From positions 1,736,001 through 1,800,000 of the forward strand of contig OZ024752.1 of the NCBI GenBank assembly GCA_964016885.1: a DNA stretch of 64,000 nt, in the 5' to 3' direction. The DNA is from Eledone cirrhosa. Lineage: Eukaryota. Both the position numbers and the translations under genes were made by a program. Below the pieces are notes generated by a model. It searched no databases. It was given only the letters and a program-made list of their open reading frames with translations, and had not been told where the DNA came from. Of the stretch, positions 4,089 through 62,517 are shown one piece after another. How positions within the stretch are numbered: position 1 is the first letter of the stretch; each line of letters starts with the position of its first letter.

Positions 4089-4267
4089 TATAATCCTGTA
4101 ATTAAATGAGCTCAAAGGAAAGAGTTTTCCTGGGTACTTTAAAATACAATATATAGAGGGGAAAGTAAAGTAAATCACACACTTCTGTGTATTTCCCCTC
4201 TATATATTGTATTTTAAAGTGCCCAGGAAAACTCTTTCCTTTGAGCTCATTTAATTACAGGATTATA
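4089..4267. repeat. Fold-back inverted repeat (76-bp arms), probable non-autonomous PLE-type insertion
   Basis: 4089-4164 is the reverse complement of 4192-4267 with one mismatch; the right arm runs straight into (TA)n. Confidence 0.85.
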
Positions 4268-4307
4268 TATATATATATATATATATATATATATATATAT
4301 ATATATA

Positions 4308-4655
4308 TGATGTCTGCCCCCTCGTTATCGAGTATGGCCATTGCACGAGAAAAAACAAAACAAAATATAATAATAAGAATGATAATAATAACAACAATAA
4401 TAATAATAATATCCATATATATATACACACACGCACATACATAAACATATCTATACACACACAAACACGATAGCAATTAACAGCGCTGCGATCGAATGTG
4501 GCTTTTTAGCCCAGACAATGATCTAAAATGTCTTGCACAGAGTCGGCAACCAAAACATTCATTGGGAATAGCCAGCTGTGGTTGGAGTTCGTGTACTTTT
4601 GCATGTCGTTTGAGCCCTCCTGCTGATTTACATTCTCTACCACATGCTTGGCAAG
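4308..4655 (-). mobile_element. 3' end fragment of RTE-clade LINE (same family as 7688-9290 and 42328-44031)
   Basis: Shares GCCCCCTCGTTATCGAGTATGGCCATTGCACGA and AACAGCGCTGCGATCGAATGTGGCTTTTTAGCCCAG...GGCAAG with 42328-42830. Confidence 0.85.
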
Positions 4656-4669
4656 AATTATATATATAT

Positions 4670-4858
4670 AATTGTTTCTACTTTTGGCACAAGGCCAGCA
4701 ATCATCCAGTGTATTACTGGTACTTTATTTTATCGACCCCATAAGGATGAAAGGCAAAGTTAACCTCGGCGTGATTTGAACTCAGAATGGGAAGGGCCGT
4801 AACTCCATGTGTCAAAGCATGGCGTCCGACCCTCTACCGATACTGCCAATCTTCCGCC
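4670..4858 (-). mobile_element. tRNA-derived SINE, family 1 (GCCTTTCATCC...TCGATAAAATA central domain)
   Basis: Reverse complement of the family seen at 4875 and 29716: A-box-like TGGCAGTATCGG, B box GAGTTCAAAT, central GCCTTTCATCCTT, 3' GGCCTTGTGCC...AGTAGAAACAAT. Confidence 0.85.
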
Positions 4859-4874
4859 CTTATATATATATAAT

Positions 4875-5064
4875 GGCGATGGATTAGCAGTATCGGTAGC
4901 GGGTCGGACGCCATGCTTTGCAGCAAAGACTTACGGCTCTTTATGATCTGAGTTCAAATCCTGCCGAGGTTAACTTTGCCTTTCATCCTTACGGGGTAGA
5001 TAAAATAAATTACTAGTAATGTACTGGGTAATTGCTGGCCTTGTGCTTCAAGTAGAAACAATTA
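4875..5064 (+). mobile_element. tRNA-derived SINE, family 1
   Basis: B box GAGTTCAAATCC, GCCTTTCATCCTTACGGGG, 3' end AGTAGAAACAATTA; collinear with 29716-29903. Confidence 0.85.
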
Positions 5065-57059: not shown

Positions 57060-57506
57060 ATATATATATATTAATATATGTGTGTGTGTGTGTATGTATA
57101 TATGTACGTATATATATGCAAGTATATATATATATGTATATAAATATCTATATATATGTATATATATATATATAGATATGTATATATATATATGTATATA
57201 TGTATATATATATGTATATACGTGTATATATATGTATATATGTATATATGTATATATATGTGTATATATGTATATATATATGTGTGTGTATATGTATATA
57301 TATATATATATATATATATGTGTGTATATGTGTATATATATATATATATATATGTAGGTATGAATGTATGTATATATATATATATGTATATATATACATG
57401 TATATATATATATGTATATATATATATATGTATATATATATATATGTATATATATATATATATATATATATATATATATATGTATATATATATATATATA
57501 TATATA
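57060..57506. repeat. Interrupted (TA)n array
   Basis: Directly visible. Confidence 0.95.
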
Positions 57507-58636
57507 TCATCATCATCACCGTTTTACGTCCGTTCTTCCACGCTAGCATGGGTTAGACGGGTTGTCCTGTTGTGTGCAGTGTCTGGTCGGCTGACCATGC
57601 CTTGCTCATACAGGAACTGATCTGGCTTGATTTCTACAGCTGGATGCCCTTCCTAACACCAACCTCAGTTACAGTGAGTGCTGGGTGCTTTTTCGTGGCG
57701 CCTACACGTCCACTTTACAGTGTGGGCTGGGTGCTTTTTTGCCGCGGCACCTCCACGACCACCTTGCGGTGGGGTGTGTGGGGGGATATTGTTTATATGC
57801 TTCAGCATGTAACCATGGGAGGTCGGGTACTCTGTATTACTGCGTGACGCCAGAAGTCACGGTCGTGTGTCATTGTCTTTGAGAGGTGTAGTTGGGTAAG
57901 GTCGGCTTTTATCACCTCATCCCAGGCCATCTTGGGTCTCCCCACTCCGCGGTTTCCATCAACTTCTAGTGCTCTGCACCTTTTTATGCAGCTGTCATCC
58001 TTCATACGCATCACATGTCCATACCAGCGCAACCGCCTCTCCTGCACACAGCATTTGATTCCTCTTATGCTCAGTCTCTCTCTCAATTCATTTATGCTTT
58101 GTCGTTCACGTATATTACTGTTACACATCCATCGGAGCATGCAGGCTTCGTTTCTCTCTAATCTACGTAGCTCTTCCACCTTCAGCGCCCAGGTCTCACT
58201 ACCATGCAACATCGCTGTTCGGATACACGCATCATACAGTCTGCCTTTCATTCTGAGGGAGAAGCATTTTGCAGCTAGCAGTGGTAGTAGTTCCCTGAAC
58301 TTCTTCCATCCCGTTCTTACCCTAGTTATTGTACTTTCTGAACACCCACCTCCGTTGCTAATTCGGTCACCTAGGTAGCAGAAGCTGTCTACTGTTTCTA
58401 CAGGGCCCTTCCAGAGATTGGTGGTAATTGTTTCCTGTGGCTGTTTGCTGCTTGCTGTTTCAGCACAGCTGCTGCATGTGAATCCTACATTCTTAATTAA
58501 GCTTCCTGAGATCCCGCTACATCTCTTGTGTACCCATTGTTTGCATTTGGGGCAGAGAATGGAGTTCTTACCTACACCTTTCCTACATACTGAGCAAGGC
58601 CATTTCCCTGAGGGGATCTGGGTTCTGTTTTCTCGT
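57506..58636 (-). mobile_element. 5'-truncated RTE-like LINE with a Cys-rich (PHD-like) insert in RT and (GAT)n tail
   Basis: Minus [24 protein letters not shown]...FTCSSC, SFCYLGD, KGRLYDACIRTAMLHGSETW, RLRWYGHVMRM; 3' UTR has GGATGCCCTTCCTAAC on plus and ends in CATCATCATC. Confidence 0.88.
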
Positions 58637-61600
58637 CATATATATATACATATATATATATATGACGTCATATATATATATACATATATATATATGTGTA
58701 TGTATATATATGTATATATATATATATATATGTATATATATATATATATGTATATATATGTGTATATATATATATGTGTATATATATATATATATATGTG
58801 TATATATATACAATGTATATATATACACGTATATATATATATATGTATATATATATGTATATATATATATATGTGTATATATATATGTGTATATATATAT
58901 GTGTATATAAATACAATGTATATATATACACGTATATATGTATATATATATGTATATATATATGTATATATGTATATATATATGTATGTATATATATGTA
59001 TATATGTATATATATATGTATGTATATATATATATATATATATATATGTATATATGTATATATATATGTATATATATATATATATATATATATGTATATA
59101 TATATATGTATATATATATATATATATGTATATATATATATGTATATATATATATATATATATATATGTATATATATATATGTATATATATATGTATATA
59201 TATATATATATGTATATATATATATGTATATATATATATGTATATATATATGTATATATATATATATATGTATATATATATATGTATATATATATATATA
59301 TATATGTATATATATATATATATATATGTATATATATATATATATATATGTATATATATATATGTATATATATATATACATATATATATATATATATACA
59401 TATATATATATATATGTATATATATATATACATATATATATATATATATACATATATATATATATATATACATATATATATATACATATATATATATATA
59501 TATACATATATATATATACATATATATATATATATATATATGTATATATATATATACATATATATATATATATATACATATACATATATATATGTATATA
59601 TATATATACATATATATATACATATATACATATACATATATATATACATATATATATACATATATATATATATGTATATATATATATATGTATATATATA
59701 TATATGTATATATATATATGTATATATATATGTATATATATATATATATATGTGTATATATATATATATATGTGTGTATATATATACAATGTATATATAT
59801 GTGTATATATATACAATGTATATATATGTATATATATATATGTATATATATATATATGTATATGTATATATGTATATATATATATATGTATATATATATA
59901 TGTATATATATATATGTATGTACATATATATGTATATATATATATGTATGTACATATATATGTATATATATATATGTATATGTATATATGTATATGTATA
60001 TATGTATATATATATATGTATATGTATATATGTATATGTATATATATATATGTATATGTATATATGTATATGTATATATATATATGTATATATATATATG
60101 TATATATGTATATATGTATATGTATATATATATGTATATGTATATATGTATATATATATATGTATATATATATATATGTATGTATATATATGTATATATG
60201 TATATATATATATATGTATATATATATATGTATATATATATATGTATGTACATATATATGTATATATATATATGTATATATATATATGTATGTACATATA
60301 TATGTATATATATATATGTATATATATATATGTATGTACATATATATGTATATATATATATGTATATGTATATATGTATATGTATATATATATATGTATA
60401 TGTATATATGTATATATGTATATGTATATATATATATGTATATATGTATATGTATATATATATATATGTATATATGTATATATGTATATGTATATATATA
60501 TATGTATATATATATATGTATATGTATATATGTATATGTATATATATATATGTATATATATATATGTATATATATATATGTATATATATATATGTATATG
60601 TATATATGTGTAGACGTATATATGTATATATATAAATGTATATATGTATATACGTATATATGTGTATATATGTATATATGTATATACGTATATATGTATA
60701 TAAGTATATACATATATGTATATATGTATATACATATATATGTATATATGTATATACATATATATGTATATACGTATATACGTATATATGTATATACGTA
60801 TATATGTATATACGTATATATGTATATACGTATATATGTATATATGTATATATACATGTATATATGTATATACATGTATATATGTATATATATGTAGATA
60901 TGTATATATGTATATATATATATATGTGTATATATATGTATATATATATATGTGTATATATATGTATATATATATGTATATATATATATGTGTATATATA
61001 TGTATATATATATGTATATATATATATGTGTATATATATGTATATATATATGTATATATATATGTATATATATATGTATATATATATATGTATATATATA
61101 TGTATATATATATGTATATATATATATGTATATATATATGTGTATATATATATATGTATATATATATGTATATATATATATGTATATATATATATGTATA
61201 TATATATATATGTATATATATATGTATATATATATATTTGTATATATATATATATATATATGTATATATATATATATGTATATATATATGTATATATATG
61301 TATATATATATGTATATATATATGTATATATATATGTATGTATATATATATGTATGTATATATATATGTATATATATATATATGTATATGTATATATATA
61401 TATGTATATGTATATATATATATGTATATGTATATATATATATATATGTATATGTATATATATATATATATGTATATAGATATGTATATAGATATATATG
61501 TATATAGATATATATGTATATATATATGTATATATATGTATATATATGTATATATATATGTATATATATGTATATATATATGTATATATATGTATATATA

Positions 61601-62184
61601 TATATATATATGTATATATATATATATATATATGTATATATATATGTATATATATGTATATATATGTATATATATATGTATATATATGTATATATATGTA
61701 TATATATATGTATATATATGTATATGTATATATATACATATATATGTATATATATATGTATATATATGTATATGTATATATATACATATATATGTATATA
61801 TATATGTATATATATGTATATGTATATATATATATATATATGTATATAGATATGTATATAGATATATATGTATATAGATATATATGTATATATATATGTA
61901 TATATATGTATATATATGTATATATATATGTATATATATGTATATATATGTATATATATATGTATATATATGTATATATATATGTATATATATGTATATA
62001 TATATGTATATATATGTATATATATGTATATATATATATGTATATATATGTATATATATATATGTATATATATCTATATATATATATATGTATATATATC
62101 TATATATATGTATATGTATATATATGTATATATATATGTATATATATGTATATATATGTATATATGTATATATATGTATATATA
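58637..62184. repeat. About 3.5-kb interrupted (TA)n array
   Basis: TG interruptions with sub-blocks of CA, GTAC, CG and GA variants. Confidence 0.95.
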
Positions 62185-62390
62185 AACGGAAAAAATGAAA
62201 CGATATTTCATTTCCCACTCTTAGTACGGCTGTTACTTAAATATAAGTATGTACACGTACATACATATATGTATACCGACGTACAGTAGTATGTATATAT
62301 ATATATACATACATGCACACATATATATATGCACGTATGGATTCACCGAACATTTATTATAATGCTCAGTATATACATATATGTATACCA

Positions 62391-62517
62391 ACGAGTGTGA
62401 CTTTTTAGTCCAGTCGCTGGCTGGACTAAAAAGTCACACTCGTCAGCGCATCGGTAGGCGTTCTCCTACATGGATTTAAGGTAGTGGCCGTATTCGAAAA
62501 CGAGTTGGCAGCCACCA
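62391..62517. repeat. Small fold-back hairpin (23-bp perfect arms) plus tail
   Basis: ACGAGTGTGACTTTTTAGTCCAG (62391-62413) / CTGGACTAAAAAGTCACACTCGT (62421-62443); unique sequence continues to (TA)n at 62518. Confidence 0.75.

Follow-up and report, generated by a model that had tools for sequence, protein, structure and literature searches.

Hairpin inserts between (TA)n tracts

We analysed a 64,000-nt window of the genome of Eledone cirrhosa (GenBank assembly GCA_964016885.1, contig OZ024752.1, positions 1,736,001 to 1,800,000 of the forward strand; positions below count from the first letter of this window). The window contains ten short hairpin inserts, each called here by its first position, and two 5'-truncated Penelope-like elements (PLEs), PLE1 and PLE2 (Table 1). 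Eight of the inserts also carry a one-sided tail. Each of these stubs is most likely a one-time insertion of a heavily truncated Penelope-like retrotransposon from one of several families. An earlier note made from the sequence alone, the original prediction, had listed the inserts as pairs of inverted arms around a short spacer, and we found such arms where it placed them in all ten, with 76–100% identity and spacers of 5–94 nt. The layout that it described, in which one arm runs into a tail and the other stops at (TA)n, was present between (TA)n tracts in eight inserts, with bounded tails of 78, 63, 40, 88, 55, 67, 88 and 74 nt, but inserts 4089 and 7377 did not clearly fit it. Its view that the inserts are mostly unrelated holds generally, except that 26355 and 44446 belong to one family. 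The two copies were paired head-to-head in every insert, and none consisted of tandem head-to-tail hammerhead monomers. Arm pairs were non-identical in eight of the ten inserts (76–99% identity) and fully identical in 7377 and 62391. Secondary structure was not significant in any of nine tails that we folded (z −1.7 to +0.6).

The abundance of inverted repeats in the window is not due to chance. After microsatellite masking, exact 20-nt inverted repeats at most 400 nt apart formed nine clusters, compared with none in 30 of 30 Markov resamples; this count merges 24947 with 25260, misses 31424 and includes a pair of short interspersed element (SINE)-like repeats outside the original list. At 4660–5062, two copies of an abundant SINE-like repeat lie head-to-head over a short TA spacer, forming a hairpin of another kind; further copies of that repeat are at 20502, 29707–29910, 41336 and 44942. 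The window is very rich in (TA)n, and 14,899 bases were masked. The predicted targeting of (TA)n, with enrichment at both junctions, was borne out: (TA)3 occurred within 14 nt of 17 of the 20 insert ends, compared with 3.7% of unmasked positions, a figure that is partly circular and inflated because the original prediction had placed the ends at TA edges. Pattern scans of metagenomes returned no loci.

Table 1. Hairpin inserts, Penelope-like elements and related features of the window
Feature	Position	Strand	Details
24947 stub	24947–25152	−	tail 24947–25024 (78 nt); tail-bearing arm 25025–25084; spacer 8 nt; tail-less inverted arm 25093–25152; arms 58/60
25260 stub	25260–25598	−	tail 63 nt; arms 25323–25453 and 25466–25598; spacer 12 nt; 122/133
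25686 stub, abundant family	25686–26070	−	tail 40 nt; arms 25726–25887 and 25903–26070; spacer 15 nt; 151/169
tRNA-like segment	25891–25964	+	inside 25686 family (spacer and tail-less arm); ARAGORN tRNA-Ser(gga)
26355 stub	26355–26680	+	tail-less inverted arm from 26355; spacer 94 nt; direct arm 26521–26592; tail 88 nt
44446 stub, second of 26355 family	44446–44603	+	inverted repeat 44440–44474 and 44487–44521; spacer 12 nt; 33/35
31424 stub	31424–31774	−	tail 55 nt; arms 31479–31616 and 31636–31774; spacer 19 nt; 109/143
34918 stub	34918–35141	−	tail 67 nt; arms 34985–35060 and 35066–35141; spacer 5 nt; 72/76
62391 stub	62391–62517	+	23-nt arms 62391–62413 and 62421–62443; spacer 7 nt; tail 74 nt; 23/23
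4089 hairpin	4089–4267	.	arms 4089–4164 and 4192–4267; spacer 27 nt; 75/76; TA on right side only, tail unbounded
7377 hairpin	7377–7521	.	arms 7377–7430 and 7468–7521; spacer 37 nt; 54/54; (TA)3 at neither end, no defined tail
PLE1, 5'-truncated	32149–34720	−	tail 32149–32309 (161 nt); pseudo-long terminal repeat (pLTR) 32310–32441 with hammerhead-like motif; about 1.4 kb untranslated; endonuclease frame ending 33816
PLE1 tail-less inverted pLTR	34565–34696		followed by 9-nt reiterations to 34720
PLE2, 5'-truncated	49762–50762	+	GIY-YIG frame to 50283; hammerhead core 50509–50537; arm end 50707; tail 50708–50762, then (TA)n
PLE2/31424 family pieces	18877–19114	+	arm end and tail about 18877–18973; tail-less arm end into (TA)n 19066–19114; direct orientation
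Other hammerhead-bearing element end	49385–49760	−	head-to-head with PLE2, no TA between; ends approximate

Links between the stubs and Penelope-like elements

As the original prediction stated, PLE1 has the same layout as the stubs. Its two 132-nt pLTR copies are 100% identical in inverted orientation, a 161-nt tail follows one of them, and the 2.1 kb between them includes the endonuclease frame. This 288-aa frame encodes a Zn-finger-like motif and a GIY-YIG domain, which scored E 0.045 against Pfam and E 8e-10 when a profile built from PLE endonuclease relatives was used. We found no reverse transcriptase (RT) in PLE1 or elsewhere in the window, and word-index protein searches with the PLE1 endonuclease gave no matches at E 1e-20 (longer proteins) or 1e-12 (proteins near its length). 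Upstream of the endonuclease, at about 34270–34450 on the minus strand, lies an asparagine-rich linker that resembles the N-rich inserts of Adineta Penelopes (PMC3846280). At the tail-less ends of PLE1 (34697–34720) and the 34918 stub (about 35142–35160), the last 8–12 template bases are reiterated, and a 12-nt unit occurs three times at the PLE1 junction (34539–34578); these repeats look like RT slippage or re-initiation.

The 31424 stub could be connected to an element with a coding frame. Both of its arms align to the 3' end of PLE2 (169/235 and 130/194 alignment columns, including gaps). The tail-bearing arm continues through the tail to the same last bases as PLE2, and the tail-less arm ends at window position 50707, exactly at the border between the PLE2 arm and its tail. 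The GIY-YIG domain of PLE2 matched Pfam at E 4e-5 and, like that of PLE1, is preceded by Cys motifs; a Cys-rich, Zn-finger-like linker in this position is a mark of Neptune/Nematis-type PLEs, a candidate clade for the parents. Relatives of PLE2 (45–49% identical) have an upstream RT motif, which is present in 24 of 44 relatives of at least 400 aa; in a Pfam search of five relatives, an RT family was found in none and GIY-YIG in one. A parent with a PLE open reading frame (ORF) can thus be named for the 31424 family, namely PLE2 with its GIY-YIG frame and with an RT motif in relatives only; for the other families such a parent is a prediction.

Head-to-head with PLE2 lies the end of a different element, in which Rfam Hammerhead_HH9 matches at 49587–49658 on the minus strand (E 3e-7; 36.5 bits, below the gathering score of 52). 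Homology to PLE2 begins at 49762 or 49765 in 101 relatives. The resulting unit, 49385–50762, is flanked by long TA arrays and may be either one two-template insertion or two nested insertions.

Hammerhead-like motifs suggest a link between further stubs and PLEs. On the outward strand, we found such motifs in 24947 (score reached by 1 of 500 shuffles), 25260 (4 of 500), 26355 (0 of 500) and the PLE1 pLTR (0 of 500), with no comparable inward-strand match in any of these four. Reading outward, 24947 contains the 3' half of the motif and 25260 a degenerate minimal form; in 26355 the motif lies at 26411–26455 on the minus strand, across the tail-less copy and the spacer. The minimal-hammerhead descriptor gave nothing significant in 7377, 25686, 31424, 34918, 62391 or 4089 (15 of 500 shuffles in the last). 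A PLE marker is thus present in five of the ten inserts (31424 by homology to the ORF-bearing copy; 24947, 25260 and the pair 26355/44446 by hammerhead-like motifs), and 25686, 34918 and 62391 are assigned from their layout. Additional hammerhead-like cores at 38141–38164 and 3845–3866 (both minus strand, the latter with GAAT and near 4089) are probably the ends of other PLE families.

Outer ends are fixed and junctions vary

The original prediction proposed that the outer end and tail of a family are fixed while the arm length varies, and that tails are specific to families and not to loci. Both proved correct where we could compare copies. The outer end and tail are common to 26355 and 44446 (54/56 and 123/136), and the lengths of arm and spacer differ. 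In 26355 the inverted repeat pairs 26350–26426 with 26521–26597 (75 of 77 identical); 44446 has shorter arms and a different junction with a 5-nt microhomology, as read from the sequence. All three families with more than one copy have a tail that is common to several loci.

For the 25686 family, we mapped four of seven listed public runs on 25680–26076 at 80% likeness and obtained 2,473 contigs from run X1 (organism A), 253 contigs from run X3 (organism B), and 2,706 and 2,371 restriction-site-associated DNA (RAD) reads. Summed contig depth, which is not copy number, was 77–98k in the tail, up to 456k in the arms and 435–1,466 at 25862–25889, beside the junction found in the window. Judged from these depths and the joins below, the family is abundant and has a common tail, and the hairpin in the window was not amplified as a unit. 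We counted at least 15 distinct joins of the left arm to the right arm (six in X1, eight in X3 and one in RAD reads only), in a tally that covers 15 of 28 joints and 12 of the 16 insert rows listed, and from which six rows on opposite strands, a skip inside one arm and a single go-back were excluded. Most joins were found in one contig each, at a depth of 4–21 and in one case 96, and several had 1–8 extra or 4 shared letters. Strand switches were also seen, one of which (25833/25837) occurred in three runs, and at 26070, 19 contigs run on into mixed tail and TA sequence. Junctions cluster near the 3' edge of the tRNA-like part, for which mapping bias between the arms could be the cause. RAD read ends also piled up at 25726, 25773, 26022, 26028 and 26031. 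We rejected these as biological ends, including 25726 as a sign of 'tail-only' insertions, because all five lie on AATT sites and are most likely restriction ends and ligation chimeras.

Outer ends and tails that are specific to a family, together with junctions that are not, point to truncated PLE insertions, and neither to miniature inverted-repeat transposable elements (MITEs) nor to hairpin units that multiply. The idea of minimal elements multiplying as units was contradicted in 25686, the one family tested with reads, in which the hairpins are one-off products. We regard a PLE origin of the eight tailed stubs as highly probable. The core of the earlier proposal, that the hairpins are products of PLE integration and not MITEs, is therefore supported, although half of the inserts, 4089 and 7377 among them, have no PLE marker. 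Insertion at TA of MITEs, or of fold-back DNA transposons bearing long terminal inverted repeats, would account for the inverted arms and TA flanks; their TA target duplication could hide inside (TA)n, and no asymmetry is visible in 4089 or 7377. However, one-sided tails recur at different loci, arm length varies within families, homology leads to the end of a GIY-YIG retroelement, and the 2,473 contigs of the 25686 family contain no dominant full-length hairpin. These observations contradict a MITE origin for 31424, 26355/44446 and 25686, and we consider it very improbable for the set. Fold-back artefacts of sequencing or assembly would fit the perfect arm identity in 7377, 62391 and PLE1 and the fact that no listed contig spans the whole 25686 insert. 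We judge them extremely improbable, as most arm pairs differ, ends fall repeatedly at the same positions of a family, comparable joins appear in contigs of two organisms, and the 25833/25837 switch is found in three runs.

A possible route by opposed priming

Two features of the stubs bear on how they were formed. The tail-less end falls on at least three (three to five) alternating T/A template bases in seven of eight units, where a conservative best-phase null expects 1.5 of 8 (P 7e-5; for summed lengths, P 0.005). The eight scored units include PLE1 and omit 44446, as the sister of 26355, and 4089 and 7377, which have no tail; the tail-less end of 62391 is the one that is not TA-like. Additionally, the spacer extends the tail-less copy upstream in 44446, 25686 and 26355, and probably in 31424; in PLE1 the extra upstream part is on the tail-bearing copy instead. 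The frequent position of the spacer on the tail-less copy and the TA-alternating template bases at seven of eight tail-less ends may be new observations. In vitro, purified protein of Poseidon from Anolis (PAc), which is predicted to form a dimer, cleaves and extends both strands and initiates at two RNA sites, one at each boundary of the tail (PMC11167929). Together, the TA-rich tail-less ends, the spacer polarity and the PAc data point towards two priming events in opposite directions, whose products were joined by their ends.

In such a route, the PLE endonuclease would nick both strands of the (TA)n target, and element RNA would be copied from each nick into a separate short cDNA. Priming at the distal site would yield a cDNA with the tail; priming at a TA-rich site 40–160 nt further upstream would yield one without it. 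Synthesis of both cDNAs would break off early, at points that vary, and end-joining would then unite them head-to-head. We infer the paired priming, the pairing of the primer at the TA-rich site, the end-joining step and the inactivity of the stubs. We put a probability of roughly 0.6 on the overall reading, in which the hairpin-plus-tail inserts are the shortest, protein-less insertion products of several PLE families, formed by opposed priming at (TA)n nicks; paired priming, taken as a component, is slightly favoured.

The principal alternative accepts the PLE origin but derives the hairpin from self-priming, or fold-back, of one template or cDNA, after which the endonuclease trims one tail at a TA-rich site. 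Head-to-head PLE repeats have been explained in print by self-priming on an antisense template (PMC3846280) and the tail by resolution by the endonuclease (PMC8557442), and the scheme accounts for near-identical arms, the rare bases shared by the 25686 arms, TA-rich tail-less ends and junction microhomology. However, one tail-primed cDNA that folds back would leave the extra sequence on the tail-bearing copy, so that a further trimming step is required to place the spacer on the tail-less copy. In vitro, moreover, RT starts at each of the two tail boundaries, and extension occurs on both strands (PMC11167929), and the two-family unit at 49385–50762, which we counted for two templates at least once, is left over unless it represents two separate insertions. 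We treat fold-back with trimming as a tentative explanation, possible but on the unlikely side.

Several points weigh against our reading. A TA-rich tail-less end would be left equally by endonuclease trimming of a fold-back intermediate, and the Poseidon start sites determined in vitro have no homology to the target (PMC11167929). Three bases found in fewer than 10% of family reads occur in both arms of 25686, which indicates that they came from one source copy or subfamily and gives no sign of two unrelated templates; the 11% difference between these arms was for that reason rejected as proof of two templates. The joint sides in the 25686 reads are short (25–44 nt in contigs) and were mapped at the same 80% likeness, some with 19–39 unaligned letters, which makes the positions approximate; read joints do not reveal which arm has the tail, reads were examined for this one family, and among the pieces listed none covers the whole insert. 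Later deletions at palindrome centres could add to the variety of junctions. The hammerhead descriptor was written after the motifs had been seen and misses the cores of PLE2 and 38141, and Rfam found no hammerhead in 25263–25594, in 32150–32600 or at the PLE2 motif. Finally, 25686, 34918 and 62391 carry no PLE marker, and 4089 and 7377 do not fit the layout.

A tRNA-like segment in the 25686 family

The 25686 family contains a tRNA-like segment (Table 1) that begins a few bases from the junction and that Rfam also recognises as tRNA at 25892–25963 (40.2 bits). Read-majority bases restore its stem pairs, as judged by eye. Contigs of the family number in the thousands for organism A and in the hundreds for organism B, where the tail has no depth, and no ORF was linked to the family. 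Upstream of the tRNA-like part, loose read ends converge on a purine-rich consensus that is partly alike between runs (agreement 0.60–0.81) and is not (TA)n; these partly common letters indicate that the start of the tRNA is not a clean 5' end of the family. Directly after the tRNA-like part, most reads have a T5 run (in X5, 635 of 703 reads of one orientation carry 25973 A>T). Such a run should end transcription by RNA polymerase III, which would therefore stop before the tail. Compared with a tRNA-derived SINE, the family has the tRNA-related head, but its 5' end does not coincide with the tRNA start and its body contains, in most reads, a predicted terminator. We therefore consider that 25686 is more likely a PLE 3' region with a captured tRNA gene than a SINE carried by PLEs.

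Some families, 25686 above all, might alternatively be non-autonomous short RNAs without a protein-coding parent that are moved in trans by PLE proteins. The abundance of 25686 in two organisms, its tRNA-like segment and the lack of a linked ORF agree with this idea, and non-autonomous PLE partners have been described, namely MRC1 (PMC8557442), retrozymes (bioRxiv 10.64898/2026.07.22.740005) and trans-mobilised host DNA (PMC3846280). The purine-rich upstream consensus, the T5 run ahead of the tail and the presence in the window of an ORF-bearing parent of the 31424 family argue against it, and we find it unlikely. Still more speculative, and rather improbable, is a reading in which the stubs preserve, across the genome, traces of paired target-primed reverse transcription from two fixed RNA sites, with TA pairing selecting the inner site and two families sometimes involved (49385–50762), and in which 25686 is a SINE-like passenger of Penelope proteins.

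Other features of the window

Inverted repeats of 60 nt at 28627–28686 and 29005–29064 are 83% alike and enclose about 440 nt; they form a candidate old MITE, in contrast to the stubs. Fragments resembling the 3' ends of long interspersed elements (LINEs) lie at 7767–9097, 42654–44028, 22800–23815 and 57800–58635, and several adjoin TA arrays. The segment 45199–47364 is an old tandem duplication of about 70% identity that includes 91-nt repeats.

Discussion

The layout of an inverted copy plus a tail is itself already published for PLEs (PMC8557442, PMC3846280, PMC4209133). PLEs are described with an adjacent inverted 5'-truncated copy, a one-sided tail of 30–40 bp and microsatellite targets (PMC8557442, PMC8969392, PMC3846280), and the formation of these copies and tails is still called undefined (PMC8557442). 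They make up 6.83% of the genome of Octopus vulgaris, in 190 families (PMC13282606); the excerpt of a killifish Neptune paper (PMC12602865) contains nothing on structure. Endonuclease-positive PLE insertions resemble the stubs in the head-to-head inverted 5'-truncated copy, the tail at one end, microsatellite targets, microhomology junctions and, in some families, a hammerhead-like motif near the 3' end or a parent with a C-terminal GIY-YIG domain (PMC8557442, PMC3846280). They differ in that both copies in the stubs are cut to 23–180 nt, which leaves no ORF, and in that the tails here measure 40–161 nt, compared with the published 30–40 bp (PMC8557442). Adineta PLEs have target duplications of 8–10 bp; in the stubs, such a duplication would be hidden inside (TA)n.

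Pairs of minimal hammerheads on opposite strands, 100–700 bp apart in Schistosoma and ascribed to truncated PLEs (PMC4209133), are probably the same kind of object, short pLTR fold-backs. Unlike in those pairs, most arms here are truncated within the ribozyme or downstream of it, so that motif searches would miss these stubs. PAc resembles the stubs in its AT-rich target and in two fixed 3' ends, one on either side of the tail, and it cuts and extends both strands, as proposed for the stubs, but its start sites lack homology to the target, in contrast to the TA-like tail-less ends described here, and the excerpted paper offers no model for inverted copies (PMC11167929). Non-LTR retrozymes (bioRxiv 10.64898/2026.07.22.740005) and MRC1 (PMC8557442) are, like the stubs, ORF-less and related to pLTRs, but they are arranged in tandem head-to-tail and amplify, whereas the stubs are head-to-head and have unique junctions. 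We did not find twin priming applied to PLEs, or a tRNA-derived PLE passenger, in the open-licence literature, although subscription papers, Fig. 2 of PMC8557442 or Figs S1–S2 of PMC11167929 may hold such a model.

A related process is known from another class of retrotransposons. In twin priming of LINE-1, primers from both target strands give rise to an inverted junction that is closed by end-joining. There the internal site is variable and little sequence is duplicated; in the stubs the second site is fixed for each family and the arm is duplicated.

Stubs of this kind could be mistaken for MITEs or for miRNA precursors, the latter because Rfam miRNA families give sub-threshold matches to them (over the whole window, microsatellite miRNA matches dominate the best 150 of 579 rows), and one family yields a tRNA gene call. 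The object itself is ordinary for PLEs. Its interest lies in the tRNA-carrying family and in a testable handle on how the inverted copies of PLEs form. Given thousands of stubs whose outer ends are fixed and whose junctions are unique, spacer polarity, arm origin and TA pairing could be counted over the whole genome, and such counts would separate paired priming from fold-back with trimming.

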